A DNA stretch of 64,000 nucleotides, taken from an uncultured Methanosarcinales archaeon. GTDB lineage: Archaea > Nanobdellota > Nanobdellia > Woesearchaeales > GW2011-AR9. The stretch is taken from the NCBI GenBank assembly GCA_964344235.1, contig CAYFMJ010000001.1, forward strand, positions 32,001 to 96,000, given 5' to 3'. The notes beneath the pieces were generated by a model that saw only the letters and a list, made by a program, of their open reading frames with translations, had not been told where the DNA came from and ran no database searches. Positions 31,364 to 59,775 of the stretch are shown one piece after another (position 1 is the first letter of the stretch; every line of letters begins with the position of its first letter). Position numbers and translations under genes: made by a program.

Positions 31364-31438
31364 GGGCCCGTAGTTTAGCCTGGATAGAACGACAGCCTTC
31401 TAAGCTGTAGGTCGGGGGTTCGAATCCTCCCGGGCCCA
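31364..31438 (+). tRNA. tRNA-Arg (TCT), no intron, CCA not encoded
   Basis: GGGCCCG/CGGGCCC acceptor stem, ACAGC-CTTCTAA-GCTGT anticodon arm, TTCGAAT T-loop. Confidence 0.96.
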
Positions 31439-31444
31439 CTTCTT

Positions 31445-31482
31445 CCACTCCCCACTAGACAACCGTCAGCAGGGCTTATTAA
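31445..31482 (+). promoter_or_regulatory. Conserved box + TATA promoter of LAGLIDADG-1
   Basis: CCACTCCC-CACTAGACAACC-N11-TTATTAA. Confidence 0.75.
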
Positions 31483-31503
31483 TTAATGATCTTCTAATTT
31501 CAG

Positions 31504-31540
31504 CACTCTCTGTTTTATTCTTGGTGTAAACAGAGAGGTG
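31504..31540 (+). promoter_or_regulatory. SD-sequestering hairpin upstream of LAGLIDADG-1
   Basis: CACTCTCTGTTT...AAACAGAGAGGTG, 12 bp with one bulge; the 3' arm contains GAGGTG 6 nt before ATG 31547. Confidence 0.7.
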
Positions 31541-31546
31541 ATTGAA

Positions 31547-32233
31547 ATGAACGAGAATCTGAAGAATAATCCAGAGCTGGCTCGCTTAGTGGCAGACTTA
31601 ACGAGTGATGGACACCTACAAGTAAAGGGTAATAGACATGTTGCATCGTTCTACTCAAAAGAGATATACGAAATTGAAGCAGTTCGCAGCAGATTCTTAT
31701 CGTTGTTTGGGCTTGTAGGTAATGTCCATGTCGACAAACGTCCTGCGAAAGAGGGAGGGAGAGAAGTTGTTCGATACCAAGTTTACTTCTGTTCGAAAGC
31801 TGTCTGTGTATTCCTAAAAAATATCGGTACCCCCATCGGCAACAAGACAGATAATGAGTTTTTGATTCCGGACTGGATCATGAATGGCGCTAGCCAAACC
31901 AAACAATCATACCTAAAAGGTCTATACGATGCTGAGGGAAGCATATTTTGCGGAAAGGATGGGAAATGGCAAATTACGTTCAAAATGGCTAAAAACAAAT
32001 CAATGCTTAGTGCAGGAACCAACTATTTTGAACAGATCAGAGCCTTACTTGCCGAATTCAACATTAAAACGTCTCCGGTAAACAACCATAAACTCAATGT
32101 TAGAAAAGATGGAAGTGAAAGTTTATTACTTAGAATCGCCATCGAAAAAGGTTCGTTTAAGAATTTTCAAGAGCATATTGGTTTCGATCACCAAGAAAAG
32201 AGAAAAAAATTAATTGCTGCTCTTAAAAATTAA
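31547..32233 (+). CDS. Free-standing LAGLIDADG (DOD/intein-type) endonuclease 1
   Basis: PELARLVADLTSDG and YLKGLYDAEG motifs, C-terminal F...IGF....K..KL; no Hint splicing residues. Confidence 0.88.
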   Translation: MNENLKNNPELARLVADLTSDGHLQVKGNRHVASFYSKEIYEIEAVRSRFLSLFGLVGNVHVDKRPAKEGGREVVRYQVYFCSKAVCVFLKNIGTPIGNKTDNEFLIPDWIMNGASQTKQSYLKGLYDAEGSIFCGKDGKWQITFKMAKNKSMLSAGTNYFEQIRALLAEFNIKTSPVNNHKLNVRKDGSESLLLRIAIEKGSFKNFQEHIGFDHQEKRKKLIAALKN

Positions 32234-32237
32234 AGAA

Positions 32238-32930
32238 CTACGAATCACTGACAGAATAGCTGACTTCTTGGATGCCGCCGCCGTACGCTTGGAAGAGGAC
32301 TTCTTTGACTGTAAGGTTGAAACCTTGTACGTAATAATTATCACCGTCTTGCAACCACTCGCTGAGCAGGCCGTTGATTCTTATACGCGCGCCTTTTGAT
32401 TCTATGAGAGCAAGGGAAACGTTGTATTCTTTATCGTTGAGAGTGTGGGGAATTTCATCGCCAAGCGTGAGGGTCCAGGTTTCTTCGGCTGGTTCTGATT
32501 CCTCTTCTTCTGGTTCTACTTCCGCAGGGTCAGTGTAATTCTCTGGTTTTGGTAAGCATTCAGCATTTTCGCAACCGAACTCACACGTTTTTGTTTTGAT
32601 CCAGTCACAACTCTCCAGTTGGTAACCCATTTTTTTATCACTTTTACATTTGAATCCGGAGGTACAAACCTCTGCAGGAGGAGGTGGAGCACAAGCGTCA
32701 TCAGCACAGCCGTGTTCACAGGTGGTTAAGTTCGACCAATCACAATCTTCATCCTGATATGCAATTTTCTTCTCGTCAACACATTTCATGCCAGCTGTGC
32801 AAGCAGTTGTTGGTGTATCTGTTGTAGAGGCAGTGGTTGTGTTAGCGCCTGGTTGTTCAGTAAGGTCTGTTGAGGTACACCCTACAAGAAGAAGTACAGA
32901 GCACAGAATAATGATTAACAGCCACCTCAT
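32238..32930 (-). CDS. Lipoprotein-like surface protein with two 6-Cys repeats
   Basis: MRWLLIIILCSVLLLVGC lipobox, Thr-rich linker, repeat C..G.KC......YQ...CDW.....CE.GC....C twice. Confidence 0.75.
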   Translation of the reverse strand: MRWLLIIILCSVLLLVGCTSTDLTEQPGANTTTASTTDTPTTACTAGMKCVDEKKIAYQDEDCDWSNLTTCEHGCADDACAPPPPAEVCTSGFKCKSDKKMGYQLESCDWIKTKTCEFGCENAECLPKPENYTDPAEVEPEEEESEPAEETWTLTLGDEIPHTLNDKEYNVSLALIESKGARIRINGLLSEWLQDGDNYYVQGFNLTVKEVLFQAYGGGIQEVSYSVSDS

Positions 32931-32985
32931 TGTGTTGAAAATTAATTGATTCATGTATATAAAAGTATTCTTGCGACAAAAACAA

Positions 32986-33738
32986 TTAACGATAAATTTT
33001 AGGAGTGTGTTTTACTGTTGCGAGGTTTCTATTCCGTAATGCTTCTTCATATTTTAATTTTTTATTCCTATTGTTGAAGCCAATAACTTCCATATATTTC
33101 TTAACCCTTTTGTATCCGTTAATATAAATGCGGTGTGTTGTATAAGTTATGTCTCTCTTCCTATAATGCTGGGCTTCTTTTCTAAAATAATTATCTATGC
33201 CCAGTTCTTGAAATATTTTTGAACATTCTTCTGTTAGAATCTGCGATTTAAATCCACCTTGAACTATTGGGTATGCATTTGGTTTATGCTTTATTGTCAA
33301 ACAGAAATCAGCATCGGCTAAACCACGAAGAAACGCGGCTTTAATTTCCACATTACTCTCCAATATGCACTTTGGCACTGATATATTTCTTTTATTGTTT
33401 GGTATGCCAATGTTTCTTTTAAAGAATAAGCATATTGCTTTAGATTGTCTTCTTAGTTCTATTGAATTTTTCTCTTTCTTAATATCTTTGTGTAAACGTA
33501 CTTGAAATATGTCGTGCATTAATTTTCGGGCAAAGTCCATATGTTCTTCGTCCTTTATATTACCAGAGATGTTAATATTATAACAGCTTCTTCTTTTGTT
33601 GTGGTAAATACCAATATGCCCATCGCCAACAATAATTCCAATTAATTCTGCCAATTCTGGCGTAAGATGAGAAGGAAGGCAAATTCCTGCACTTTTATCT
33701 CCATTGCTTAATTCTATACTAGATAAATCAAATTTCAT
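32986..33738 (-). CDS. Free-standing LAGLIDADG endonuclease 2
   Basis: PELAELIGIIVGDG and FLRGLADADF motifs, YMEVIGF; start refined to ATG 33738 (SD AAGGTGA). Confidence 0.88.
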   Translation of the reverse strand: MKFDLSSIELSNGDKSAGICLPSHLTPELAELIGIIVGDGHIGIYHNKRRSCYNINISGNIKDEEHMDFARKLMHDIFQVRLHKDIKKEKNSIELRRQSKAICLFFKRNIGIPNNKRNISVPKCILESNVEIKAAFLRGLADADFCLTIKHKPNAYPIVQGGFKSQILTEECSKIFQELGIDNYFRKEAQHYRKRDITYTTHRIYINGYKRVKKYMEVIGFNNRNKKLKYEEALRNRNLATVKHTPKIYR

Positions 33739-33744
33739 TTTTAT

Positions 33745-33780
33745 CACCTTTGTTTTACGCGAGATCAAAAACAAAGCGTG
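33745..33780 (-). promoter_or_regulatory. SD-sequestering hairpin upstream of LAGLIDADG-2
   Basis: Minus-strand RNA CAC-G-CUUUGUUUU...AAAACAAAG-GUG, 12 bp with one bulge; SD in the 3' arm. Confidence 0.7.
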
Positions 33781-33793
33781 GAGAAATGCAATT

Positions 33794-33831
33794 TATTTAA
33801 TACCTGCCAGTGGTTGTCTAGTGGGGAGTGG
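33794..33831 (-). promoter_or_regulatory. Conserved box + TATA promoter of LAGLIDADG-2
   Basis: CCACTCCC-CACTAGACAACC-N11-TTAAATA on the minus strand; first 20 nt identical to 31445-31464. Confidence 0.75.
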
Positions 33832-33915
33832 CTAGTTTTTTGTTTATTATTGCCGGAAATTATATAAAGGGACTTCTGCGAGAAATCTTTAAGGGTCAGT
33901 GGCCAAGTGGCTAAG

Positions 33916-33943
33916 ACTAGTCTAGATTCTAGACTAGTAGTAA
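33916..33943 (+). other. tRNA-Cys intron 1 (28 nt, position 23/24)
   Basis: BHB: helix GCTA/TAGT, bulges AG|A and AA|G, 9-bp stem CTAGTCTAG-ATT-CTAGACTAG. Confidence 0.88.
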
Positions 33944-33973
33944 GCGGCCCCCTGCAGAGGGGCAGATCGAGGG

Positions 33974-34001
33974 AAGTACTTAGATTCTAAGTGCTCTCGA
34001 A
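33974..34001 (+). other. tRNA-Cys intron 2 (28 nt, position 53/54)
   Basis: BHB: helix CGAG/CTCG, bulges GG|A and AA|T, 9-bp stem AGTACTTAG-ATT-CTAAGTGCT. Confidence 0.88.
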
Positions 34002-34073
34002 TTCGAGTCCCTCCTGGCCCTCCATTTTCTAAATGTATTTAAACTGAAACCATTTGAAGTGTATTAAGAGAAA

Positions 34074-34484
34074 ATGAACAACAAAATTAAACTTGCCGGA
34101 TGTGTAATTCTAAAAGAAGATGCTATCCTTCTGCAACATAGAACAAAAAGAAATTGGTACGAATTACCAGGAGGAAAACTGGATGAAAACGAATCGCCAG
34201 AACAAACAGCAGTGAGAGAGCTTAAGGAAGAATTATGTTGTGATGTCGAGATTATTGAACAACTGGGAGTAAAAGACTTCGTGGAAGATGGTTTTACAAT
34301 GACTTATGTTTGGTTTCTTGCAAGAATTAAGGAAAATCAAGAGGTAAAAATTGGTGAACCAACTAAAATAAGCCATATTCATTATATCCCAATTAAAGAT
34401 CTCGAGTCTCATAACCTTTCACCCAACATGGAACGTCTATTAGAGGAGATTAAGCAAAAGAGAGTAAAATTATTTAAACCATAA
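34074..34484 (+). CDS. NUDIX hydrolase
   Basis: Nudix box GGKLDENESPEQTAVRELKEELC. Confidence 0.9.
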   Translation: MNNKIKLAGCVILKEDAILLQHRTKRNWYELPGGKLDENESPEQTAVRELKEELCCDVEIIEQLGVKDFVEDGFTMTYVWFLARIKENQEVKIGEPTKISHIHYIPIKDLESHNLSPNMERLLEEIKQKRVKLFKP

Positions 34485-34499
34485 TTATAATCTCAGTAC

Positions 34500-35588
34500 A
34501 TGAATAAAAAAGCAATCTCCTCTTTAGAGCTAGCGGCACTTGTACAAGAATTGCAGTTTATTGTGAAAGGAAAGGTTTCGCAGATTTATCATCAGGAGAA
34601 GAAGGAGTTACTGCTACAATTACATGCACCAGGGCAGGGTAAACAATTGTTAAAGATAATTCCAGGGAAATTGTTGTGTTTAACGGACAGGAAAAAAGCA
34701 GGAAGTTTACGGCCAACAGGGTTTTGTATGCAGTTGCGGAAATATATCAATAATGCATTTATCAAAAGTATTCAGCAAAAAGATTCAGAACGAATTGTTG
34801 TATTTGAGTTGGAGAAAAAGGAGAAGTATTATTTGATTGTTGAATTGTTTTCCAAGGGGAATATTGTATTAGTTGATGGCAACTATAAGATTATTGCAAC
34901 GTTAACATGGCAGAAGTGGAAAGATAGGACTGTAAAGCCGGGAGAAGAATATCTCTTTCCAGAATCGCGAGTTAATTGGAAAACAATTAGTGAACCTATG
35001 TTTAAATCGTTGGTGGAAAAGAGTGAGAAGAAGAATCTGGCTACAGCTCTGGCAACAGAATTGGGCTTAGGTGGAGTGTATGCGGAGGATTTATGTTTAC
35101 GAGTGGGTGTTGATAAGAATATTGTGCCCACGGATGTGACGGCAGCACAGGCTGGGTTGTTGTTTCAGGGACTGCAAGAGATGTTAGTGTTGTTAGAAAA
35201 CCCAAAGGGGTGGATTTACGAGGAACAGGTAACGCCGTTTCCTCTTGCTGAAGAAAAAGATGAAAGGAGAACAAAGACGTATAATGAGGCGATCAATACA
35301 CTCAATCCGTTTCAAAAGAAGTCGCCGTATGAGCAAAAGATCGCTGCAATTGAGAAGACTATTGCGACACAGCAGGAAGCGATTGAGAGTTTGAAACTGA
35401 AGATTGAAGAGAATGGTAGGAAAGGAGAAAGGGTTTATGAGGAGTATGCTAACTTGCAGAAGTTGTTAGATATCGTGAAAGAGTTGCGGAAAACAGCGAC
35501 GTGGGAAGAGGTTAAAGGAGAGTTAACAAAAGAGAAGAAAATCAGTTCTGTTAATCTGAAGAAGAAAACTGTAATGATTGAGTTATGA
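34500..35588 (+). CDS. NFACT/Rqc2 (FbpA) family protein, N-terminal part only
   Basis: F.MQLRKYI.NA.I.SI.Q...ERIV.F, LIVELFSKGNIVLVD, LG...AE..C.R.G, coiled coil; ends at 362 aa. Confidence 0.8.
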   Translation: MNKKAISSLELAALVQELQFIVKGKVSQIYHQEKKELLLQLHAPGQGKQLLKIIPGKLLCLTDRKKAGSLRPTGFCMQLRKYINNAFIKSIQQKDSERIVVFELEKKEKYYLIVELFSKGNIVLVDGNYKIIATLTWQKWKDRTVKPGEEYLFPESRVNWKTISEPMFKSLVEKSEKKNLATALATELGLGGVYAEDLCLRVGVDKNIVPTDVTAAQAGLLFQGLQEMLVLLENPKGWIYEEQVTPFPLAEEKDERRTKTYNEAINTLNPFQKKSPYEQKIAAIEKTIATQQEAIESLKLKIEENGRKGERVYEEYANLQKLLDIVKELRKTATWEEVKGELTKEKKISSVNLKKKTVMIEL

Positions 35589-36284
35589 TTTTTGCATGTA
35601 ATATGCTCTTTTTTCTGAAGAGAATTTTTCTATCGCGTACCGTAGCATTGTGCGGGGCATTGTTTTATAGTGTTGTTGGAGGAACTGTTCTTCAAGAGGT
35701 TGATCTCTCTTTCCAATCTCACGTAACATCCAGCCAACTGCTTTATGGATGAGATCGTGTTTATCGTTGACTAAGATTTCGGCAATTTCTAGAGAATCTG
35801 TAAATTGGTTTTTGTGAATAAACCAGAATGTTGCTAAAATGGAGATACGGCGGTCCCAGAGGTTATCTGATTGAGCGAGGGCGTGGAGAAGTGACTTATC
35901 TTTGTCTAACAAATATCTGCCAATAACTTTATGTGCAGTTACATCAATTAAATCCCAGTTATTAGCGTATTGTTTGTGGTTAATGTAGAAATCAAATATT
36001 TCTTTTTGTTCTTCTGGTGTCGCTTTTTCAAATTTATATGTAAGAATGATGAATGAGGTAAGCCTTACTTCGTGGTATTTGCTTTTGATTGATTTCGAAA
36101 GCTCTGCAAGAGAAATGTTCACATATTTCTTAGCAATCTTTCGTTGTTCAGGGACTGTGATTCCGAGAAATACATCACCTTCACCATATTGCCCAGGGCC
36201 TGTTTTGAAGAATCGTTGTAGTACTTTTGCTTTCTCTGGGTTTTTGCGTTGCTGCAGTTCTGTGAGGAGTTGAGAGAGCATCAT
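35583..36284 (-). CDS. DNA alkylation repair protein (AlkD-like HEAT-repeat)
   Basis: FFKTGPGQYGEGDVFLGITVP..RKIAK, NNWDLID, NLWDRR, IHKAVGWMLRE.GK, MPRTMLRYAIEK. Confidence 0.9.
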   Translation of the reverse strand: MMLSQLLTELQQRKNPEKAKVLQRFFKTGPGQYGEGDVFLGITVPEQRKIAKKYVNISLAELSKSIKSKYHEVRLTSFIILTYKFEKATPEEQKEIFDFYINHKQYANNWDLIDVTAHKVIGRYLLDKDKSLLHALAQSDNLWDRRISILATFWFIHKNQFTDSLEIAEILVNDKHDLIHKAVGWMLREIGKRDQPLEEQFLQQHYKTMPRTMLRYAIEKFSSEKRAYYMQKS

Positions 36285-37042: not shown

Positions 37043-37097
37043 TCTTTTCACGTGGCAAATGAGGTATTTTAATGTTTCGATGATTGAGACCACAACC

Positions 37098-37127
37098 CAC
37101 TCGACAACTGCGAGTAGAGAATATAAA
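37098..37127 (+). promoter_or_regulatory. Conserved box + TATA promoter of the DUF4186/RNase-H-like operon
   Basis: CACTCGACAACT-N11-ATATAAA; ATG 37150 follows 22 nt after the TATA (leaderless). Confidence 0.65.
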
Positions 37128-37149
37128 TGAGTAATTCTGTGGGGAATCT

Positions 37150-37500
37150 ATGCAAGAGGTGTTAGCAAAATTGGAGCGGTCGAGGTTTCGCAGAAAGTTT
37201 CGTTTGTCTGAGAACGATATTGAGTATATTCAGCGAAAAACGGTTGAAGTGATGTATGATCATGCAGAGGGTTTTATCCGAGAGCGGTTACGGGAGTACC
37301 CTAGAAATGATGGAAAACAAACGCCGTGGAAAGGACATCCTGTGTTTATTGCGCAACATGCCACAGCCACTTGTTGCAGAGGATGCATGGCGAAGTGGCA
37401 TAACATTCCAAAGAATGTTGTGATGGATGAAGAACAAATTGCGTATGTAAGGGATATTATTATGACCTGGATGTGTGGGCAAATAGTAGAACATGATTGA
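37150..37500 (+). CDS. DUF4186 family protein
   Basis: L.RSRFR.KF.L, NDGKQTP.KGHPVFIAQHATATCCRGC..KWH.I. Confidence 0.9.
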   Translation: MQEVLAKLERSRFRRKFRLSENDIEYIQRKTVEVMYDHAEGFIRERLREYPRNDGKQTPWKGHPVFIAQHATATCCRGCMAKWHNIPKNVVMDEEQIAYVRDIIMTWMCGQIVEHD

Positions 37501-38221
37501 GCAATCATTTGTATTTTTAGAGAGAATTGGGTTCAGGAAAGAGAGAGGTATTTGGCAACAGGGAATTAGGACATGGCAGGATTTCTTACTGTGTGAGAAC
37601 ATCCGAGGGGTTTCTGGGAAGAGAAAAGGCCATTATAATCGGAAGATACAGGAAGCGCAGCAGGCGTTGTGGCGGGGAGATTATTCTTATTTTATTGGAA
37701 AGTTGCCTCAAAAAGAGATGTGGCGGTTGTATCCGTTTGTTAAAGAAGAGTGTTGTTTTGTAGATATTGAGATTGATGGAAATGGAAGAATCGTGGTTGT
37801 GGGTGTTTCAAATTATTTTCAAACGAATTTCTTTGTGAGAGGGGTTAATTTGCAGAAAGAAATGGTTGAGAGGGAGCTGGGGAAGTATAAGGCAATAATT
37901 ACATTTAATGGCGGAGCGTTTGATGTGCCAAAACTGTGGAAGGAGTTAGGCGTTGACGTTGGGATGATACATATTGACTTAAAGCCGCTGTGTGTGAATA
38001 TGGAAATGAAAGGTGGTTTGAAAGAGGTAGAGAGACAGTTGCAGTTACGGAGACCATTTCATTTATATGGGAATCCTATTGATCTATGGAAAGCGTTTCA
38101 CGCTTCTGGTGATAGAGAATATTTGGAGTTGCTTCTCGATTATAATAGAGAGGATTGTGAAAATTTGAAGAACATTATGGAATTTGTCTATAAGGGGATG
38201 GTAAAAAATTATATAAACTGA
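37493..38221 (+). CDS. RNase H-like (YprB-type DEDD) exonuclease-domain protein
   Basis: FVDIE, ITFNG..FDVP, HIDL, GGLK.VER.L, L..YNREDC.NL. Confidence 0.82.
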   Translation: MIEQSFVFLERIGFRKERGIWQQGIRTWQDFLLCENIRGVSGKRKGHYNRKIQEAQQALWRGDYSYFIGKLPQKEMWRLYPFVKEECCFVDIEIDGNGRIVVVGVSNYFQTNFFVRGVNLQKEMVERELGKYKAIITFNGGAFDVPKLWKELGVDVGMIHIDLKPLCVNMEMKGGLKEVERQLQLRRPFHLYGNPIDLWKAFHASGDREYLELLLDYNREDCENLKNIMEFVYKGMVKNYIN

Positions 38222-38238
38222 TGATGTCTCTTTAGGTT

Positions 38239-39645: not shown

Positions 39646-39646
39646 A

Positions 39647-41688: not shown

Positions 41689-42075
41689 ATGGGAGTATGC
41701 ACAAATTGTGTTGATAAGTATGGAGACTGGTTCTATTTCGTGTTTCGTTTATTAATCGGTCTACTGTTTTTCATGCATGGTTATGGAAAATTGTTTGGTG
41801 GAGAAGCTACTGGATTAATTTGGTGGGCAGGATTAATTGAATTGCTCGTAGGATTGGGAGTGTTCTTTGGGTTCTTTACCAGGTTAGCAGCGTTTGGCGG
41901 TGCGATTGTAATGCTAGTTGGGTATTTTATGATGCACTTTCCAATGGGCTGGAATCCGTTGCTTAATGAAGGACAAGCGGCAGTGTTGTTCTTTGCAGCG
42001 TTCTTAGTATTGATGCAGAGAGGAGCAGGTAAGTGGGCATTAGAAAGAGCTCTATTGAAGAAAGAAGTGTTCTAA
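41689..42075 (+). CDS. DoxX family membrane protein
   Basis: FRLLIGLLFFMHGY.KL, ELLVGL....G..TRLAA, GAGKWAL. Confidence 0.88.
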   Translation: MGVCTNCVDKYGDWFYFVFRLLIGLLFFMHGYGKLFGGEATGLIWWAGLIELLVGLGVFFGFFTRLAAFGGAIVMLVGYFMMHFPMGWNPLLNEGQAAVLFFAAFLVLMQRGAGKWALERALLKKEVF

Positions 42076-44261
42076 CTTCTTTCCTTTTTTTTATATTTTT
42101 TTTCCATTATTGAATTTATTTTTTCCGCAGTTTTTTGGCCGATGCCTTCTACCTCTGTAAGGTCTTCTGCAGTGAGGAGTGCTTTTATTGAGCCATACTG
42201 TTCCAGCAATTTCCGAGCTGTAGCAACGCCAATTGTTGGAAGAGAAGAAACGATAAATTCTAGCTGCTCATTGGTTGTTCTTGGTTTGTTAACGTGATAT
42301 GAAAAATCGCGTGATTTGTCTTGTTCACGTTTGGCCATAACGGCTAGCAGCGCTGCTGTGTCTCTTGCGTTTTTTGTGTATAAAACAGGGACGTGGAAGT
42401 CTAATGTTATAGATGAAAGCATGCCACGGATAGCGTTAGCGTGAACTTTTCGTACAGAATAAATATCTTCCTCACCTTCAATAATAACAACGGACTTTTC
42501 GAAATTATTTTTTAGGTGGCGGACTTGTTCGAGTAATCTTCCGTCAATTATGGAGGAAACAAAGTCGGGAACTTTCTTTAGTTCGACGCCTACTTTTCCA
42601 GAGACAACATAATCGGCAGATTCAAGTTGTGCCGTTTTGACGGAAACTCCGAGGTCAATTAATTCTTTGACAATGCGATTATTTTTTTCACGATGATCTG
42701 CTACTACTGCAACAACTTGCTCTTTTGGAATAAATGTTTGTAGAGAGGTGTTCTTTGTGGAGGGGGTGAGAGAGAATTCTTTTTTGAGTTTCTCCAAATT
42801 ACGGTACATTCGCTTTTCTTTATGATGAGAACTCCACCTATATCCTTCGTCGCGGGTTTTTTCTGTGACGAGGATGGTAACAGCACCCTCTTCTAATCGT
42901 CCTGTGCGGCCTCTCCTCTGAATAGCACGAATTGCTGAGGGAACTGGTTCGTAGAACATTACTTTATCTACTTTAGGGATGTCAAGGCCTTCCTCCGCTA
43001 CACTAGTCGCAACGAGAACATTAAATTTGTTGTTACGGAATTGATCTAAGATTTCTTTTTGTTGTTTTTGTGAAAACCCTATGCCATTTTTTTTTGTTTG
43101 ACCGACAAAGATGTGTGAGGGAATGGGGTGGAGTGTTTTAATGATTTGCTCAGCTGAGTCACGGAATTGTGTGAAGATAATGATTTTTGCATTTGGATCT
43201 GCAGTGATACGTTCCGAGGTGAGTTCTTTAAGTTTGAGAAGTTTAGGGTGTTGAATGTTTTTTTCTATAAGTTCCTCTGTCAGGTAGGCAGCTGCTTTGA
43301 AATTTTCGTCAAGTACAAGGTTTCTGACCGCTTTTACTTTCGAGGTCGTCGCTTCCTGCTTTAATTTGTTGCAATAGGAATGGAGAGGGTTGATGCCCTG
43401 TGTTTCCAATAATTCTATAGCGTGATCAACTTTCAGTGCTTCCGCAACTAATGAAACACTTTTGAGAATCTCAAAATCTTTGATGCCAGAAGATATCTTT
43501 TTCATCAATTCTCCCTGTAACCCAAGCATCTGCGTTTTTGTTAGATCAGAAGAGGAACAATAGCCATAGCCCATTGCCTGTAGAAGTTTTGATTTTCTAC
43601 AATCTTGCAGATATTTTTGAATTTTTTTGAACTCGTCGGGGAGAGGAACTTTTACCCATTGTTTCTTGATTGTTTGGACGTACGGTTTTACATCTGGGTC
43701 TTGTTCCGTTCGTACCTCAACTTTCTCGATATGAAGATTCGTGCAAACTTCTCTAATTTTTTCCATATCACTGCCAGGAGATGCGGTGAGAGCGAGGATG
43801 CGTGCGTACTTTGAACGCTTTTCGTATTGGTCAGCAATCCAGACATAAGAGTATTCGCCCGTTGCATGATGCGCTTCGTCAACTATTAGCAAAGAGGTTT
43901 CCGTTAAGTTGATGCGTTTATTGATTATGTCGTTTTCCAGCCCTTGGGGTGTTGAAACAATTATTTGGGAGGATTTCCAGAGGTCTGCACGTTTTTCTGG
44001 TTTTACAGAGCCGGTGAATAGGGAAATGTTTTCGTTCTTGAGATGGGTTTTGAGTGTCTCTACGTGTTGTTCACATAGCGGTTTTGTCGGGGCAAGCATC
44101 AGAATTTTTGATTGGGGGTATTGGTGTAGTCTTTGTGCGATGAGAAGGAAGGCAATGGCAGTTTTCCCTAAGCCAGTAGGAAGGACAACAAGTGTGTTTT
44201 TACTGACTGCCGTACCGAGGATTGTTTGTTGATAGAGCCTCGGGGTGAAGTTTTGAATCAT
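42072..44261 (-). CDS. hef: Hef/FANCM-like DEAH helicase fused to ERCC4 nuclease and HhH
   Basis: PRLYQ, LPTGLGKT, DEAH, LTASPG, ATSVAEEGLDIP, QRRGRTGR, then D.RE, ADY, ELKK and HhH GIGQKTA; start refined to 44261. Confidence 0.95.
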   Translation of the reverse strand: MIQNFTPRLYQQTILGTAVSKNTLVVLPTGLGKTAIAFLLIAQRLHQYPQSKILMLAPTKPLCEQHVETLKTHLKNENISLFTGSVKPEKRADLWKSSQIIVSTPQGLENDIINKRINLTETSLLIVDEAHHATGEYSYVWIADQYEKRSKYARILALTASPGSDMEKIREVCTNLHIEKVEVRTEQDPDVKPYVQTIKKQWVKVPLPDEFKKIQKYLQDCRKSKLLQAMGYGYCSSSDLTKTQMLGLQGELMKKISSGIKDFEILKSVSLVAEALKVDHAIELLETQGINPLHSYCNKLKQEATTSKVKAVRNLVLDENFKAAAYLTEELIEKNIQHPKLLKLKELTSERITADPNAKIIIFTQFRDSAEQIIKTLHPIPSHIFVGQTKKNGIGFSQKQQKEILDQFRNNKFNVLVATSVAEEGLDIPKVDKVMFYEPVPSAIRAIQRRGRTGRLEEGAVTILVTEKTRDEGYRWSSHHKEKRMYRNLEKLKKEFSLTPSTKNTSLQTFIPKEQVVAVVADHREKNNRIVKELIDLGVSVKTAQLESADYVVSGKVGVELKKVPDFVSSIIDGRLLEQVRHLKNNFEKSVVIIEGEEDIYSVRKVHANAIRGMLSSITLDFHVPVLYTKNARDTAALLAVMAKREQDKSRDFSYHVNKPRTTNEQLEFIVSSLPTIGVATARKLLEQYGSIKALLTAEDLTEVEGIGQKTAEKINSIMEKKYKKKERS

Positions 44262-44282: not shown

Positions 44283-44312
44283 TATATAAGGGTTATGTGT
44301 GGTTGTCGAGTG
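44283..44312 (-). promoter_or_regulatory. Conserved box + TATA promoter of hef
   Basis: CACTCGACAACC-N11-TTATATA (preceded by CCACTCCC); ATG begins 22 positions after the last TATA base. Confidence 0.75.
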
Positions 44313-44355
44313 GGGGAGTGGGATGTTTTTTATAGAAGTGGTGTTTTGAGAATAC

Positions 44356-45778: not shown

Positions 45779-45781
45779 ATT

Positions 45782-48746: not shown

Positions 48747-49799
48747 CTATTTCTTTTGTAGTAACCACAGAACGGAAGATCCTTCGCCTCTTGGAATTGA
48801 TTCTTTTTTCAATAAAGTAAAAGCATTAGAGATAGATAATTCCCAGGAAGGTCGTGTGATAATAGCTAAACGGCCGCCCGGTTTGAGAATATATTTTGTT
48901 TGATAGTATATTTCATTAATTTTTGTTTCATCTTTCTGTGTAATATGGAAGATTACTAGGTCAAATGATTCGTTGTCGAAGTGCGTGTCAAGTTCATCCA
49001 ATTCACGTTTTGTTATAGTTATGTCTTTAGAGAGGTTGGCAAGCTTTGCGTTTTTTCTGGCTGCGGTAAAGTTCTGCATGCTAGGATCAAAGGCAGTAAT
49101 GTGTGCGGGTTGTTCTGTTGTTTTAGCAGAGATGTTTCCGAAGAAGGGAATAGCAGGGAGGTTATCTTCCTGAACTGGTTTGTTGGTGGCGAAGAGAGCT
49201 GCTTCAATCGCTAGTGTACCATCTTTCACAAAGCCAATCAATAGTTTTTCATCTTTTTGAAATTGAGAGAGTCGAATGATATGGTACGCTAGGTCTCCTT
49301 TGAACGAACCAGAATGGGGAAAGACGCGGTAGAATCGGTTGTTTAGTTCTCTGCCAAATAAGTCCAGCCCGATAAGATATTGCTGCTGGTTATAGTAAAC
49401 AAAAAGGGTAAGTGTTGGGTTTTTCAAATCGATGTTGGAAGGGAGGGAATGTTGTTTGAGTTGTTCTGCAATTTTTGTTGCTAATTCTTTTTGGATAATG
49501 GTACGTTGTTCTTGGTCTTTAACGTGTTCTACATCAATTTTGAACGTCGTGCCGTTGTTGAAAAATAATTCCCAATCGGCTTCTGGTTGACATTGCGAAG
49601 GGTCGTTGTAGCAACCAAAAGAAAGTAAGAGACGCTTGATTGATTGAGAATGATAGATAATAGTTGCTATTTCTTCTGCGGTTGTTGCTTCAAATTCCAC
49701 TGCATGTTGTAAGACTTTTGGTGTTGTGTTGATTAATTCAGAAATTTCTTGCGTTGCGGTCTTTTCTAAACCAGGGCTTGTGAGAGCATAGAGTTTCAT
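48747..49799 (-). CDS. THUMP-domain RNA methyltransferase homolog (Trm14/RlmL-like), degenerate SAM motifs
   Basis: T..GLE....EI.EL, THUMP, GLDL.G..L..R.YR; DPMCGSGT position reads IGFVKDGT and NPPY position reads FHIT. Confidence 0.7.
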
Positions 49800-52408
49800 T
49801 GTTCGTTTTGTTGAGGGAAATTTTGTTCTGGTTCAGAAGGCGTCTGCTCTTTATTGTATAAACCTGGATCAATAGAAGGATCAAATTTGATGTGGGTTTC
49901 CTGTTGTGGTTCTGGAGAATCTTCTGGCGGAGGTGTTGGTGGTTGTGAATTATCTGTTGGAAGGTCAAGTTCTTCATCGTCATCAGTGATGATTTTTGCT
50001 GCTGCTGCAACAGTATCTAGCTCCGATAACCGCATTACACGAACTCCCTGTGTTGCTCTGCCGATGAGTGAGATGTTTGCGCATTTGATGCGGATGCCAA
50101 TGCCTTGCTTTGAGATAAGCATTAGTTCTTCTGAGCCATCCACCGACATGATTGTGGTAACAGGGCCATTTTTATCCGTTACTTTGATGTTCGTTACTCC
50201 TTTTCCTCCCCTATTACAAAGACGGTATTCGGAAATGGCGGTTCGTTTTCCGTAGCCCTTTTCTGTTAACGTTAGGATTTGTAGAGACTCATCTGCCTTA
50301 ATCATACCCATTACTTCATCACCATGGCTTAAACGGACACCACGAACACCACGAGCAGTTCTACCCATTGGTCGGACGTCTGATTCTTTGAAACGGTTCG
50401 CCATACCTTTACGTGTTGCAAGAATGATTTGATCATTACCAGAGGTATAGCGCACTTTAACAAGCGTATCATTGTCATCAAGGGTCACAGCACGGATGCC
50501 TCCTCTTCGTGGGCGAGAGAAGTCTTCAAGAGGGGTTTTCTTTACAGTTCCTTGTTTCGTAGCCATCAGTAGGTAGCCTTCTTCAAAACTCCTCACAGGA
50601 ACAACTGCGGTAATGTTCTCTTGATCATTAAGTTCTAATAAGTTCTTGATATGTTTCCCTTTCGCTTGTCTGCTTCCTTCTGGAATATTGTAGACTTTCA
50701 ACCAATAGACTTGACCCCGGTCAGTGAAGTAAAGTAAGTAAGCATGTGTGCTGGCGACGTAAATTTTTTCGACAAAGTCTTCTTCTTTCATACCAGCTGC
50801 TCTAACACCTTTGCCGCCGCGACGCTGCGTCTTATAGGTGTCAAGTGGAAGTCTCTTAACGTAGCCAGAATTGGTCATCGTTACCACAACGTCTTCTTCT
50901 TCAATAAGATCTTCCATGTCAATGTCATCGTCGTCATCTCCGCGCGTAATAGTAGATCTTCGGGAGTCACCGTACTTATCTTTGATTTCTGTTAACTCTT
51001 CTTTGATTAAGGTAAGAATTTTTTCTTCTGAGGCCAGAATACTTTCATAATGGCGGATTTTTTCAAGAAGTTCATCATGCTCCGCTTTGATTTTCTCCTG
51101 TTCCAATGATGCTAGTTTTTGCAGTCGCATGTCCAGAATTGCTTTTGCTTGAATTTCTGATAATGAGTAAGAAGTGATGAGGAATTGTTTTGCGTCTTCA
51201 ACAGTTCGACTTTTCTTAATACCGGGAATAACATCATCGATATTCAGAAGTGCTTTGAGTAATCCTTCTAAAACATGAATACGTTTCTGCGCTTGTTCTA
51301 AGTCATATTTCGTTCGTTTTGTAATAACATCTTTTCTATGAAAAACGTGGTGATTCAGAATTTCTTTTAACCCCAATACTTGTGGTTGGTTATCGACAAG
51401 GGCAAGAAGGTTAATACCAAAAGAAACACGTAAACGACTGTATTTGTAGAGTTGGTTCAGCACTACTTGTGCATCGGCATTGTTTTTGAGGTCAATAACG
51501 ATTCTGATTCCTTCTCTATCGGATTCATCGTTGATGTTACGGATACCTTCAACTCGCTTGTCTCGGACAAGATTCGCAATTTGTTTGATTAGCTCTTCTT
51601 TGTTTACTTGATACGGAATTTCTTTAATGACAATTTTGTTTTCTTCCAATTCTGATATGGCTTTAATCTTTACTTTACCTTTTCCTTTTGCGTATGCATA
51701 ATGAAGGGCTTGACCGCAGACAACCTCCCCTCCTGTCGGAAAGTCAGGAGCGGGGATGTGTTGCATTAATTCTTCCGTAGAGATATCTGGGTTGTCAATA
51801 GTGGCGATGATTCCTTCACAAATCTCTGAAGCATTGTGTGGAGGAATGTTGGTTGCCATCCCTACAGCAATTCCTGAAGAACCGTTGATTAACAAGTTTG
51901 GAAGTACGGTGGGGAGGACGACAGGTTCTTGTAATGAGCCATCAAAATTGTCTCGGAAATTAACGGTGTTCTTCTCAATGTCTTTCAACATCTCTTCTGC
52001 GAGTTTCTGGAGCTTAGCTTCTGTATATCGCATTGCGGCAGCATTATCTCCATCAATGGAACCGAAGTTCCCCTGGCCTTTGATTAATGGGTAGCGAAGA
52101 GAAAAGTCCTGTGCCATCCTGACAAGGGAATCGTAGACAGCCGTATCACCGTGCGGATGATATTTACCGAGTACTTCCCCCACAATACGTGCACATTTTT
52201 TGAATGGTTTGTTGTGTAACATGCCCATGTCGTACATGGCGTAGAGAATTCTTCGATGGACGGGTTTAAGGCCATCTTTGACATCAGGTAGAGCTCGACC
52301 TACAATAACAGACATCGCGTAATTAACGTACGCTTGCTTCATTTCATCCTCAATTACTTTCGGGATGATCTGGTCAGTTGGTGTCGGTTCTGCTTCTGTT
52401 GGCGTCAT
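49796..52408 (-). CDS. gyrA: DNA gyrase subunit A
   Basis: [29 protein letters not shown] catalytic Tyr, GyrA-box QRRGGKG, beta-pinwheel repeats. Confidence 0.97.
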
Positions 52409-52484: not shown

Positions 52485-52510
52485 TTTATAAAGCTTGTGG
52501 TTGTGGAGTG
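52485..52510 (-). promoter_or_regulatory. Variant box + TATA promoter of gyrA
   Basis: CACTCCACAACC-ACAAGCT-TTATAAA (N7 spacing, one mismatch to the consensus). Confidence 0.45.
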
Positions 52511-52579
52511 GTTTTGTTGATTTACTACCAAGATGGTGTGGCGGAGAATTTATATGCATTAAGCAATAGCCAAAATATA

Positions 52580-53989: not shown

Positions 53990-54034
53990 AGAGAGTTGGG
54001 AGGGAGGTGGTTTTTAAGTGTTTTGGAAGAAATA

Positions 54035-55876: not shown

Positions 55877-55982
55877 ATGATTTTTGTGAGAAGAGTATTA
55901 AAAAAAATATAGCCGATATTTATTTCACTCCTCCCGAATACTAAACAAACTTTTTAAACGTTCTTCGACTAGAAGGACTACT

Positions 55983-56480
55983 ATGGGATGGTTTAGCAAG
56001 AAGAAGAAAATACCGAAGGTGCCCTTGCCGGCAGGCCATCCAGTTGATGAGAATGCATTACGATTTCCTTCTATGCCACATTCGGAGAGAGTTATTGAGC
56101 CAGATCATGTGAAGCAAGCTGTTGGTGTTGGAAATGATAAGTCATTGCCACCTCTACCAGAGTATCCTAAGATGTCTCCGCCAGCAGCTCCTCGACGAAA
56201 GGTAGCAAAGCGACAACCTACGGCTCCGGCGATGGCGCCACCCATACCAAGAGTAGCGGGCCACCCATTATATGCAAAAGTGGATGTGTACCAGAGAGTA
56301 TTGGGGGAGTTAGATAGTTTACGGACAGATATCTCTCACTTGTCAACTGCAAATAACCATTTAGCAAAATCAGAGTTTAATGAGGAAAAGAATTTTGAAA
56401 AATTGAAACGAAACGTACGCAACATGCACGATAGATTATTGCTTGTTGACAAAGTATTATTTAAAACGCAAGGTGAATAA
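55983..56480 (+). CDS. Hypothetical protein: MGWFSKK start, Pro-rich linker, C-terminal helical hairpin
   Basis: PLYAKVDVYQRVLGELD..R..I...L...E..E...L. Confidence 0.7.
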   Translation: MGWFSKKKKIPKVPLPAGHPVDENALRFPSMPHSERVIEPDHVKQAVGVGNDKSLPPLPEYPKMSPPAAPRRKVAKRQPTAPAMAPPIPRVAGHPLYAKVDVYQRVLGELDSLRTDISHLSTANNHLAKSEFNEEKNFEKLKRNVRNMHDRLLLVDKVLFKTQGE

Positions 56481-56481
56481 A

Positions 56482-56709
56482 ATGGAACGAATGCCAGTTT
56501 TTGTAAAAATTGATGAATATAACGACGTCCTACATTTGTTAGGGTTAATTCGAAGGAAACTTGATGATGCTAAAGAGACTTTGGCTAAAATCCACGACTT
56601 AAAGAATGAAGAAGATCATCAACTAGAGACGTGGCATAACACGTTGGAAGAAGTCGAGAAAAAAGTTGATTTTATTAATCACTCATTGAGTGAACCAGAA
56701 AAGTTCTAA
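56482..56709 (+). CDS. Small helical-hairpin protein, paralog of the C-terminus of 55983-56480
   Basis: PVFVKIDEYNDVL.LL..IR.KL; SD AGGTGA upstream. Confidence 0.75.
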   Translation: MERMPVFVKIDEYNDVLHLLGLIRRKLDDAKETLAKIHDLKNEEDHQLETWHNTLEEVEKKVDFINHSLSEPEKF

Positions 56710-56710
56710 G

Positions 56711-57220
56711 ATGGCTGCTAAGAAAAAGAAAAGTAGTACGAAAAAGAAGAGTATACCTAGAAAGAGAACTACTGCTAAGAAAAAAACAGTCAAAGCAGTA
56801 AAAGAGCCAGAATATATGGTGCAAGTATCTGATCCGAAAATGATTCGGAAGGATTTGCTCGAGTCATTACGAGAAGTTATTATCTTTATGCAGGGGTATG
56901 AAAAGTTTCGAAGTATGCAACAAGAGAAGGTTGCCTTGTTTACTGCGTTGAAAACAGAGGTTAAAGAGTTACATGCATTAAATGAGAAGTTGCGGAAGAA
57001 ACTGCCGAAAGGGAAGTTACAACCAGTTACAGCGGAGCAACAACAGAAAAAGAATGTTGAGGAAGCTGTACAGGAGATGCCAGAGGAAGTTCCTGAAGAA
57101 CATCATGAAGAGCCGGTAGCGGCGCCACCTGCTCCTGAACCAGCAGCACCGCCGAGTGGTTTAGCTGCGTTAGAGTCGCAATTGCAGGATATTGAGCAGC
57201 AGTTGCAGAATATTCGGTAA
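56711..57220 (+). CDS. Coiled-coil protein with Lys-rich N-terminus
   Basis: EYMVQVSDP..IRKDLLES.RE.I coiled coil, Pro/Glu linker, L..LESQL..IE..L tail. Confidence 0.7.
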   Translation: MAAKKKKSSTKKKSIPRKRTTAKKKTVKAVKEPEYMVQVSDPKMIRKDLLESLREVIIFMQGYEKFRSMQQEKVALFTALKTEVKELHALNEKLRKKLPKGKLQPVTAEQQQKKNVEEAVQEMPEEVPEEHHEEPVAAPPAPEPAAPPSGLAALESQLQDIEQQLQNIR

Positions 57221-57271
57221 ATTATATTCTTTATTTACGATTTTATTATATTGTAAAAGTGTTTTGATAGT

Positions 57272-57739
57272 ATGCACGATGCAACACTCTGTATTCCCCT
57301 CGAAGAGGAGCACATTCGTTTAGCAATGAAAAAGCGAGGTTTTGGCGCAGGCCGGTATAATGGATATGGAGGAAAACCAGAGGCCGGGGAATCTATTGAA
57401 GATGCTGCAGTGAGAGAGTTCTATGAAGAGTCTGGTGTAAGAGTTAAGAAAGAGGATTTAGTAAAGGTAGGAGAGGTAGAATTTTACTTTCCCCATAAAC
57501 CAAACTGGGATCAAAAAGTTCATATCTATACCGTTCGTCAATGGGAGGGGGATTTTGTAGAGACGGAAGAGATGAGGCCAGGAAGATTTCATCATTCGGA
57601 AATTCCATATTCCCAAATGTGGCCGGACGATGAGTTTTGGTTACCACATGTTCTTGCTGGGAAGTATGTGATGGGGAGTATTGTATTTGGAGAAGGAGAT
57701 ACGATTCTTGAGAATCGGTTGGAGATAAGGGAGAGTTAA
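57272..57739 (+). CDS. NUDIX hydrolase, 8-oxo-dGTPase (MTH1-like)
   Basis: LAMKKRGFGAG.YNG.GGK.E.GESIEDAAVRE..EESG, ETEEM.P, IPY..MW.DD..WLP. Confidence 0.88.
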   Translation: MHDATLCIPLEEEHIRLAMKKRGFGAGRYNGYGGKPEAGESIEDAAVREFYEESGVRVKKEDLVKVGEVEFYFPHKPNWDQKVHIYTVRQWEGDFVETEEMRPGRFHHSEIPYSQMWPDDEFWLPHVLAGKYVMGSIVFGEGDTILENRLEIRES

Positions 57740-58590
57740 GCACTATACGCATCCATTACTTGTAATACTACTTGAGGATTTGTTGTTGGAAGAGAGTGTG
57801 GTGCGCCTGGAACAACATCGATATCAAGTTCACCCACTACTAATCCCCTAACGATTGGTTCTGCTTTTGTAGGCACAACCATTGCATCTTTGCTACCATA
57901 AATCATGTGGGTTGGAACGTAAAAACCACCTAATTGCTCAGAAACATCAAAGCCAATAGCGACCCTACCCATAACATTATTTGCTCTGATTCTATGCCAC
58001 GGTTGATCTACTATTGTTTTCAGAACTGCCAATTCTGATGCGCCTTCCAATTGTGACTGGTCTGGATATGATCTTTTTGTTCCTCTTAGCAAATGTCCAA
58101 GACCGGTTATTGCAAACCCTGGCCATTCAAGCACATAACGACCAACTTTGTCAAAAAAGTGATACAGAGCAACATTTGGTGCGGTGTCTTTAAAGTTAGG
58201 TGCAGTGCAGATACCCGTTAGTTTTGAAGCATTTTTGGTACGAGAAATATAATCAACAGCCGGCATAAAACCGAAACTTGTTGCAACAAATTCTGGCCTC
58301 TCTATACCCTTACGAGCTAAAATCATTTCAAGGTCTTGAGAGTGTCTTTCTAACTCATAAAATTCTGGTTTCGTGGGAGCATCAGAATAACCAAAGCCAC
58401 GTGGGTCAAACGTTAGAGTTGGGTGACCCCTTTCATTCAGGCCCGCTTCTAGTCGTTCAAGGGAACTATGGTTCATGGAAGATCCAGGACACAATACTAC
58501 CATTTTCTTGTTCATGCCACTGCCAGAATTTATCCAATAAAATACTTCTACTCCGTCCTCAGCAACAATTTTTTGATTAGGTTGTTTCAT
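57736..58590 (-). CDS. Alpha/beta-fold hydrolase
   Basis: D.RGFGYSD, ATSFG nucleophile elbow, PT..IYG..D..V, APHSL; start refined to 58590. Confidence 0.85.
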   Translation of the reverse strand: MKQPNQKIVAEDGVEVFYWINSGSGMNKKMVVLCPGSSMNHSSLERLEAGLNERGHPTLTFDPRGFGYSDAPTKPEFYELERHSQDLEMILARKGIERPEFVATSFGFMPAVDYISRTKNASKLTGICTAPNFKDTAPNVALYHFFDKVGRYVLEWPGFAITGLGHLLRGTKRSYPDQSQLEGASELAVLKTIVDQPWHRIRANNVMGRVAIGFDVSEQLGGFYVPTHMIYGSKDAMVVPTKAEPIVRGLVVGELDIDVVPGAPHSLPTTNPQVVLQVMDAYSA

Positions 58591-58716
58591 AGAGTGATTT
58601 AGGAGGTGGTTTTTATAAGATTTGTGTTTGTAATCATTGTGGAGTGGTTTCAATTTTATTTTAGTTACTTTTATAAAATAATCATAGTTGAAATGTTCTA
58701 TGCGGACGTGCCGGAG

Positions 58717-58759
58717 AACTCACTTCGTTCGTGCTCCAACAAACGAAGTTTGTCCGGAG
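58717..58759 (+). other. tRNA-Leu intron 1 (43 nt, 15/16)
   Basis: Central helix CCGG/CCGG, bulges AG|A and AG|T, intron stem ACTTCGTT/AACGAAGT. Confidence 0.82.
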
Positions 58760-58775
58760 TGGTCAAACGGGACGG

Positions 58776-58808
58776 TTCGTTTGGCATTACGGTGCCAAGT
58801 GAGTCCAT
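58776..58808 (+). other. tRNA-Leu intron 2 (33 nt, 30/31)
   Basis: Central helix GGAC/GTCC, bulges GG|T and AT|A, 11-bp stem with TACG loop. Confidence 0.85.
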
Positions 58809-58815
58809 ACTCAAA

Positions 58816-58848
58816 TGCTAAAACCATTTCCTGATTTAGCGTAGAGCT
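58816..58848 (+). other. tRNA-Leu intron 3 (33 nt, canonical 37/38, relaxed BHB)
   Basis: CTCA/AGAG (3 of 4 pairs), GCTAAA/TTTAGC intron stem, 3' bulge CT|A. Confidence 0.72.
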
Positions 58849-58946
58849 ATCCGTTGGTTTAGTACCTACGCAGGTTCGAACCCTGCCGTCCGCACTTTAT
58901 TATTGTATTCTTTCTTCTTAATTCAACTTTTAAATTGTAATTTTAG

Positions 58947-58984
58947 CCACTGGTCACTGGACAACCACTAGCAGAGTTTATATA
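58947..58984 (+). promoter_or_regulatory. Conserved box + TATA promoter of LAGLIDADG-3
   Basis: CCACTGGT-CACTGGACAACC-N11-TTATATA. Confidence 0.75.
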
Positions 58985-59019
58985 CAAAATCACTTACGAA
59001 GTTTCACAGTACCAAGATT

Positions 59020-59775
59020 ATGAATACAAAAATAAATCCGGAGGTTGCAGAGATCCTAGGAGCCTTTATAGGAGATGGGTGGCTTGAAAGCTCATTAGGT
59101 GCGATCTACATTACGGGTGATAAAACTGAGGATAAAGAGTATTATGATGCATTTTTAGGCCCTTTGTTTAGTGAACACTTTTCTCCCGTCACACCACAGC
59201 AATTCCCGTACTGGAATGTATATGGAATTGGTTCTTCTAAGAAAATAGCAATTGAGAAGTGCTTGAGTCTCGGTTTTCAACCAGGAAGTAAAGCACTCGT
59301 TGCAAAAATGCCAGACTTTATTATGAAAACACAAAATGTTGAGGTTAAGAAAGCTATTCTAAGGGGTATCTTTGACGCTGATGGATGTATATGGTTTGAT
59401 AGATCAAGAGCCAAGACATCTAACGAATGGAAGAGAAAATATCATTATATTCCAATTATAGAAATTTCCTCTTGTTCACAAAATTTATTACAACAAATGA
59501 AAGAAATCCTAACTACTTTTGGAATAGAATCACTTATTATACTAAAGAGTAAAGCGGGAAGAAAATTCAATAGGAATCGACATGATTCTTTCTCTTTAAA
59601 AATAAGGAAAATTGACCATGTTAAAAAATGGTTCAGTATTATTGGTTCTAGTAATTCAAGACACCAAACGAGGTATGCTGTTTGGAAAAAATTCGGCTTT
59701 CTTCCGCCAAGGACAAATATTAACCAAAGAAAGCAAATTTTAGCGGGGAAATTAGATCCTAAGAGTTTCTATTAA
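59020..59775 (+). CDS. Free-standing LAGLIDADG endonuclease 3
   Basis: PEVAEILGAFIGDG and ILRGIFDADG motifs, WF..IG.SN. Confidence 0.88.
   Translation: MNTKINPEVAEILGAFIGDGWLESSLGAIYITGDKTEDKEYYDAFLGPLFSEHFSPVTPQQFPYWNVYGIGSSKKIAIEKCLSLGFQPGSKALVAKMPDFIMKTQNVEVKKAILRGIFDADGCIWFDRSRAKTSNEWKRKYHYIPIIEISSCSQNLLQQMKEILTTFGIESLIILKSKAGRKFNRNRHDSFSLKIRKIDHVKKWFSIIGSSNSRHQTRYAVWKKFGFLPPRTNINQRKQILAGKLDPKSFY

Follow-up and report, generated by a model that had tools for sequence, protein, structure and literature searches.

The 64,000-nucleotide (nt) stretch of DNA analysed here (the window) covers positions 32001-96000 of contig C1 of G000, its source genome (1.19 Mb, 96% complete; G-numbers denote genomes and L-numbers fetched loci). 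It contains three free-standing genes for double-motif LAGLIDADG endonucleases, LAG-1, LAG-2 and LAG-3, each lying beside a tRNA gene and behind a promoter element (the box) that also heads DNA-repair genes. From the identity of these genes, their fold and catalytic residues, their adjacency to tRNA genes, the correspondence between nuclease clades and tRNAs, the existence of filled and empty sites and the common box, all observed here, we consider it fairly likely that they are free-standing cassettes encoding homing endonucleases, that each has specificity for one tRNA gene's flank, and that they are expressed along with the recombination genes of the host. Most known homing endonucleases of the free-standing kind come from phages and organelles; the genes described here would make up a whole LAGLIDADG family on the chromosomes of archaea, each tRNA locus having its own lineage.

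Three free-standing LAGLIDADG genes and their tRNA neighbours

Using PF14528 (LAGLIDADG_3) together with a profile made from the paralogues of G000 itself, we found exactly three free-standing LAGLIDADG open reading frames (ORFs) in the window and no others, as an earlier note made from the sequence of this DNA had reported. LAG-1 (31547..32233, plus strand; 228 amino acids (aa); PF14528 E = 1.6e-10) begins 107-108 nt after tRNA-Arg, LAG-2 (32986..33738, minus strand; 250 aa from the ATG at 33738; E = 9.7e-9) is divergent from tRNA-Cys across 154 nt, and LAG-3 (59020..59775, plus strand; 251 aa; E = 2.2e-9) begins 125 nt after tRNA-Leu, which reproduces the gaps given in that note. The start codons of all three are backed by a GGTGA-type ribosome-binding site. 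Their acidic residues are also as listed there (SDG/DAEG in LAG-1, GDG/DADF in LAG-2 and GDG/DADG in LAG-3), and their mutual divergence is borne out by identities of 20-25% (17-30% among the paralogues). Both catalytic acidic residues are retained in all paralogues, and D19 and D121 vary hardly or not at all among 21 homologues. Judged by these residues, the three are predicted to be active two-motif endonucleases.

Since phmmer found nothing meaningful for LAG-1, LAG-2 or LAG-3 among the PDB sequences, a fold search was needed. The AlphaFold2 model of LAG-3 (predicted local distance difference test score, pLDDT, 92.5) has the pseudo-dimeric alpha-beta-beta-alpha-beta-beta-alpha fold, and its best Foldseek matches in the PDB are I-Tsp061I, the VMA/PI-SceI intein endonucleases and I-DmoI (E = 7e-9 to 1e-5, template-modelling scores up to 0.75); for LAG-1 and LAG-2 the assignment comes from the Pfam matches. 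Those matches include no Hint or intein family for any of the three proteins. Each ORF (228-251 aa) has a promoter and a start codon of its own; the three intein-type LAGLIDADG copies of G000 sit in ORFs of 689-1461 aa. Nor are the genes intron-encoded in the manner of I-DmoI, as they lie 107-154 nt beyond the tRNA ends and behind their own box and TATA element. They also differ from WhiA-like regulators in that the acidic residues are kept and no helix-turn-helix (HTH) domain is present.

The three tRNA genes that had been described as their neighbours are all present, although the standard tools (ARAGORN and Rfam) see one of them, the intron-free tRNA-Arg(TCT) at 31364..31439 (plus strand; 68.5 bits with Rfam), left neighbour of the LAG-1 cassette. 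In the window these tools were followed by removal of bulge-helix-bulge introns and a rerun of ARAGORN. The tRNA-Cys(GCA) gene (33893..34024, plus strand) has two 28-nt non-canonical introns (33916-33943 and 33974-34001), an encoded CCA and its own TATA element at about 33860, and excision of both introns gives a canonical 73-nt tRNA-Cys (ARAGORN threshold 120). The third gene, found by a scan for acceptor-stem and T-arm anchors, is a multi-intron class II tRNA of the Leu(CAA) type (58702..58894, plus strand; 193 nt), left neighbour of the LAG-3 cassette. Its acceptor stem and T arm are perfect, these and the D arm match the Leu(CAA) genes of relatives, and an anticodon-loop segment ACTCAA is present; removing up to four segments did not resolve its introns. 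The intergenic gaps of the window gave no further tRNA with a detector that also missed tRNA-Leu, so the window may still hold hidden intron-rich tRNA genes.

Adjacency to tRNA genes is far above chance

For the whole of G000 an unbiased tRNA set was assembled from Rfam, ARAGORN with introns and the acceptor-stem/T-arm anchor scan. A genome-wide listing of bulge-helix-bulge motifs was useless as a tRNA finder (1.3 million candidates) and was therefore replaced by the anchor scan and by local intron removal with ARAGORN. At low thresholds the latter gave ambiguous anticodons for multi-intron genes, and so it was used only for the presence of a tRNA and not for its identity. The Rfam model scores above threshold at 9 places in G000, and intron-aware methods find at least 26 tRNA genes; non-canonical introns interrupt most of the tRNAs, one to three or more in each. 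Standard finders overlook most tRNA genes of this genome.

G000 has 11 free-standing LAGLIDADG ORFs in total. Seven of them lie within 150 nt of a tRNA when only the genome-wide scans are used, compared to 20 of the 1024 other ORFs (Fisher p = 1e-9); with the tRNAs found by targeted reading the counts become 9 of 11 and 22 of 1024 (Fisher p = 3e-13). Among 52 free-standing LAGLIDADG loci from other genomes of the family and order, 34 lie within 300 nt of a tRNA that could be detected, in many cases with the nuclease stop codon 0-7 nt from it, compared to none of 25 intein-type LAGLIDADG loci fetched in the same way. The 52 loci include L055, from the unpublished genome G149, where no tRNA was found; apart from this locus nothing claimed here depends on unpublished genomes, of which G138 and G200 occur in match tables only. 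The adjacency, in G000 and in its relatives, is thus far above chance. The stronger statement of the earlier note, that every tRNA gene has a LAGLIDADG neighbour, holds within the window, but since about 9 of the 26 detected tRNAs of the genome have such a neighbour it describes the window and not the genome. Relative to the tRNA, the nuclease gene may be upstream or downstream, divergent or tail-to-tail.

Some nuclease ORFs run into the tRNA gene downstream of them. At L012:3430-3475, L003:2500-2560 and L011:2440-2500 the TATA element of the tRNA (TTTAAATAAAA-type) lies within the last nuclease codons, and the nuclease stop codon falls at or inside the 5' end of the tRNA. Without the cassette, the tRNA would therefore lose its promoter. 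At another locus (L006), the last ~85 nt of the LAGLIDADG gene C2:148091-148831 (minus strand) are antisense to a multi-intron tRNA (C2:147998-148178), and the end of the ORF appears to lie within a long intron and the 3' exon of that tRNA.

Each nuclease clade keeps one tRNA partner

In a maximum-likelihood tree of 63 free-standing LAGLIDADG proteins (clade supports 100/98 to 100/100), each well-supported nuclease clade has one tRNA partner and one arrangement, in agreement with the idea, put forward in the earlier note, that these nucleases home to tRNA loci. The LAG-1 clade (G000, G013 and G125) has the order tRNA-Arg(TCT), box, nuclease gene; the orthologues in G013 and G125 are 54% and 42% identical to LAG-1, and the same tRNA also precedes an orthologue at the metagenome locus L126. 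In the LAG-3 clade a Leu(CAA)-type tRNA is directly upstream (G000, G157, G162, G134 and G208). LAG-3 has six orthologues, from six other families and 47-56% identical, with this tRNA detected in four of the six. The nearest relative of LAG-2 is a broken copy in G174, which also lies between tRNA-Arg(TCT) and tRNA-Cys(GCA). Other clades are arranged tail-to-tail with tRNA-Lys(CTT) or tRNA-Thr(TGT), lie upstream of Arg(TCG)-type tRNAs or are found between a Met-like tRNA and its neighbour.

Two observations concern the wider relationships of these proteins. After its orthologues, the nearest relatives of LAG-1 (~30% identity) are endonuclease domains inside ORFs of ~820-1010 aa, and these occur in many genomes of the order (loci L052-L057, L065, L068-L070 and L072). 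This points to exchange between the intein-borne and the free-standing forms. Separately, the G000 paralogue L012:2625-3461 (C6:12124-12960) has a C-terminal HTH, which gives it a WhiA-like architecture, and its second motif is altered (EDEL); even so, it lies between two tRNA genes and behind the promoter box.

Filled and empty sites

The tRNA-Arg(TCT) and tRNA-Cys(GCA) genes are a conserved neighbour pair downstream of a cyclophilin gene. Their spacer is empty in G006, G031 and the metagenome loci L132 and L134, where the two tRNAs are 51-80 nt apart. It is filled by a LAG-1-type cassette in G013, G125 and L126, by a different lineage in G002 and by a LAG-2-type pseudogene in G174; in G000 it contains LAG-1, an ORF of 238 aa and LAG-2 together. 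Conversely, a Met-like tRNA and its neighbour lie 4 nt apart in G000 (C12:15795-16080) and have a cassette between them in G008 and G012. Comparison of loci thus yields both the filled and the empty version for the Arg/Cys spacer and for the Met-like pair. The nuclease gene occupies a spacer between conserved genes, is absent from the homologous locus of relatives and leaves the tRNA gene beside it unbroken.

Within one family the number of PF14528 copies per genome ranges from 0 (G003, G006, G007 and G015) to ~14, four family members at 91-97% completeness are without a PF14528 match, and several LAG-2 homologues contain in-frame stop codons. Read from sequence, such patchy copies and pseudogenes are what would be expected of homing-endonuclease genes going through invasion, decay and loss.

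The 238-aa ORF in the expanded spacer of G000 (32238..32954, minus strand), between LAG-1 and LAG-2, has no Pfam match and no match to the LAGLIDADG profile. At the matching place G013 has an unrelated Cys-rich ORF of 130 aa (L112:170-559).

A promoter box common to cassettes and DNA-repair genes

A promoter box ties the cassettes to DNA-repair genes, a link absent from the earlier note. The box is ~35 nt long and consists of tandem CCAC-type repeats with the core CCACTNGACAACY, then GGTAG, with a TATA element 10-12 nt further on. It is found directly upstream of 10 of the 11 LAGLIDADG genes of G000. In the window, box and TATA-like element occupy 31445..31486 (plus strand) at LAG-1, with the core CCACTAGACAACC at 31452-31464; box and TATA element occupy 33790..33833 (minus strand) at LAG-2, with the core at 33812-33824, and 58946..58986 (plus strand) at LAG-3, with the core TCACTGGACAACC at 58954-58966.

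Other copies in the window precede genes of a different kind: a gene for a DUF4186 protein (37150-37500) with one for an RNase_H_2-type exonuclease (37493-38221; box at 37097..37109, plus strand), hef, encoding a helicase-ERCC4 nuclease (42072-44261; box at 44301..44313, minus strand), and gyrA (49796-52408; a weaker box with one mismatch at 52500..52512, minus strand). The box also heads radA, polB, lhr, radC, sua5 and two xerC-like genes, one of them followed by nreA; copies outside the window were read at loci L002, L008, L014, L015, L009, L016 and L013. The spacing from box to TATA at LAG-1, 10-14 nt, is as at radA, polB and hef. In all, G000 has about 20-24 copies. The 12-nt form of the core, CCACTNGACAAC, has 9 matches in the window with at most one mismatch, compared to 0.8 expected, and 14 of 18 genomes of the same family contain the exact core CCACTNGACAACY, with reversed-pattern controls near zero. 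In G017, G002 and G014 the box is again found before lhr, radA, hef, sua5 and the exonuclease gene, and in other genera it heads many LAGLIDADG cassettes. It is not found in the empty Arg/Cys spacer of G006, which indicates that it belongs to the cassette and travels with it.

By its sequence and distribution the box looks like the conserved operator of an SOS-like regulon for DNA repair and recombination in this archaeal family. Since cassettes and repair genes have it in common, the nucleases are probably switched together with the recombination machinery. The box is not a binding site of the LAGLIDADG proteins, since G003, G006 and G007 carry it with no PF14528 match, and the regulator is therefore not one of these nucleases. 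We also rejected the box as a tRNA promoter or as part of a split tRNA, since the genes behind it encode proteins and its distance to TATA is fixed.

Between the box and radA there is always a short ORF of 88-101 aa (L002:1813-2079, L118:2133-2399 and L124:198-503), which has no Pfam match and is probably co-transcribed with radA.

We know of no damage-response regulon described for DPANN archaea, and our literature searches found no paper on a DPANN repair promoter box; here the cassettes mark out such a box, conserved in these archaea. In Sulfolobus, the Orc1-2 DNA-damage regulon has a hexanucleotide promoter motif (PMC6061795). Both are short promoter elements common to damage or repair genes, implying a single regulator in each case. 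The box differs from the hexanucleotide in sequence and phylum, in its much greater length (~35 nt), in its tandem CCAC-type repeats and in its fixed distance of 10-12 nt before TATA. Unlike the Sulfolobus regulon, moreover, the set of genes behind the box includes selfish nuclease genes, and its inducibility is a prediction.

A proposed homing cycle and its alternatives

We propose that each cassette is made up of its own promoter and an ORF for a monomeric, double-motif LAGLIDADG homing endonuclease. In cassette-free chromosomes this nuclease would recognise and cut a site of ~20 bp comprising the conserved end of one tRNA gene and the adjoining spacer. Recombinational repair from a cassette-bearing copy would then insert the cassette, and the insertion would split the site, so that the carrier is protected. 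For such an element a tRNA gene would be a target conserved across species and the adjacent spacer a harmless landing place, and the box-driven nucleases would probably be switched on or off alongside the recombination machinery.

Several points weigh against this reading. Cleavage, target site and homing or transfer, as well as co-regulation, are what we infer from the observations above. Two of the 11 LAGLIDADG genes of G000 (C1:276823-277572 and C2:147-1217) have no tRNA neighbour, and the related genomes are not statistically independent. The comparisons of filled and empty sites are all between genera rather than strains; searches for identical copies of the cyclophilin and RNase J proteins encoded alongside returned no record, and a metagenome scan with the cyclophilin gave relatives at 51-67% identity only. 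The junction sequences of the cassettes are not conserved, and a search around the nine LAGLIDADG/tRNA pairs gave no tRNA-fragment duplications above chance. In addition, LAG-1 of G000 and its G013 orthologue are 54% identical, as are the adjacent cyclophilins, and the 47-56% identity of the LAG-3 orthologues compares with 48-53% for the adjacent RNase J. The nuclease genes have therefore diverged no faster than their neighbours, which fits long vertical residence under purifying selection and would also fit a function for the host.

Such a function is the core of the main alternative, domestication, in which the LAGLIDADG proteins, belonging to the radA/hef/polB regulon, would now work for the host in recombination or repair, and their position next to tRNA genes would be a relic of where mobile ancestors landed. 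In its favour are a promoter box that repair genes also have and that deep LAGLIDADG clades have conserved, a divergence equal to that of neighbouring housekeeping genes, and the intact ORFs and catalytic residues. We nevertheless regard it as unlikely, given the very patchy distribution of the genes (0 to ~14 copies per genome in one family, LAG-3 orthologues in 7 of 201 sampled genomes), the existence of pseudogenes and the presence of three different lineages in one spacer across genera; a role in host repair would also not require one paralogue per tRNA locus.

Less likely again, in our view, is an SOS-like network in which firing of the repair regulon would let a dozen nucleases nick or cut tRNA loci, with the resulting gene conversion, between cells or copies, driving the extreme intron load, intron transposition and fragmentation of the tRNA genes. 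Loss of the cassettes would be difficult on this reading, since in several of them the final codons contain the promoter of the tRNA downstream.

We find it improbable that the genes accumulate passively in tRNA flanks that are merely tolerant DNA or recombination hot spots, with nucleases that do not recognise the sequence of the tRNA locus: the varying orientation and the lack of conservation at the junctions would suit this, but the clades keep their tRNA partner and arrangement across families, their stop codons repeatedly lie 0-7 nt from tRNA ends and only 20 of 1024 other ORFs come that near to a tRNA. A 'replacement tRNA end' model does not apply to G000, where no tRNA-fragment duplications above chance were found around the nine LAGLIDADG/tRNA pairs.

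Relation to known systems

By analogy, the homing cassettes look like an archaeal chromosomal counterpart of SegB, a free-standing GIY-YIG homing endonuclease of the phage T4 tRNA gene cluster, an enzyme with a 27-bp recognition site in the 3' end of tRNA genes (PMC2330249). The earlier note had drawn this comparison, and it is apt: a site in tRNA 3' ends is the closest behaviour described. As with the cassettes, the SegB gene is free-standing, lies between tRNA genes and is missing from the homologous locus of relatives, and its site in the tRNA 3' end corresponds to the one we predict for the cassettes. The differences are that SegB belongs to the GIY-YIG family and a phage genome and the cassettes to the LAGLIDADG family and an archaeal chromosome; that SegB is one gene of relaxed specificity whereas the cassettes number about a dozen, as diverged paralogues that each keep to a single tRNA; that SegB has no promoter shared with a host repair regulon; and that cleavage is demonstrated for SegB and predicted for the cassettes.

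The enzymes closest in fold to LAG-3, namely I-Tsp061I and I-DmoI, which are encoded in rRNA introns, and the intein domains PI-SceI, PI-PfuI and Tli VMA, share with the cassette proteins the two LAGLIDADG motifs with their acidic residues. Unlike all of these, the cassette genes are intergenic, lying outside any intron or intein, and each has a promoter and a start codon of its own; the sequence identity of their products to the solved structures is below the detection limit of phmmer. The cassettes would also provide an enzyme resource, being a diverged LAGLIDADG set with predictable conserved targets (tRNA gene ends) for studies of specificity and for meganuclease scaffolds.

An insertion polymorphism at a tRNA locus has been described in archaeal populations, namely in Caldiarchaeum, where a 1.8-kb element at a tRNA-Thr locus, attributed to a recombinase of the integrase type, leaves behind a second copy of a tRNA fragment; neither LAGLIDADG nor homing is mentioned in the paper (PMC3293823). 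Like the cassettes, that insertion bears on tRNA gene disruption, as a source of which it is discussed, but no tRNA fragments flank the cassettes. Full-text literature searches gave no description of archaeal tRNA-linked LAGLIDADG genes.

Introns of the tRNA genes

The earlier note had also suggested that the nucleases spread tRNA introns. In its fullest form, collaborative homing, this would mean that the nucleases cut intron-less tRNA alleles and that introns, by interrupting the target, travel with the nuclease gene or protect against it, which would explain the intron load of the genome. Such homing has phage precedents, most tRNAs of G000 have one to three or more introns, and the two similar 28-nt introns of the tRNA-Cys beside LAG-2 are missing in G174, G002, G013, G006, G031 and L132. 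The idea found no support here, however, and we hold it to be improbable: the tRNA-Arg(TCT) beside LAG-1 is intron-free, introns at the Arg/Cys locus (in tRNA-Arg and tRNA-Cys alike) occur in filled and empty loci without pattern, and LAGLIDADG-adjacent tRNA genes are not significantly longer than other tRNAs (p = 0.10-0.19 in a small sample). The cassettes are nonetheless testable candidates for how archaeal tRNA genes gain insertions, introns and breaks, the link to introns being so far unsupported.

The introns of the tRNA-Cys gene itself lie one in the D-arm region and the other in the T arm, and they have a TAGATTCTA hairpin core in common. From this likeness in sequence, it is as if one of them had been copied to the second position.

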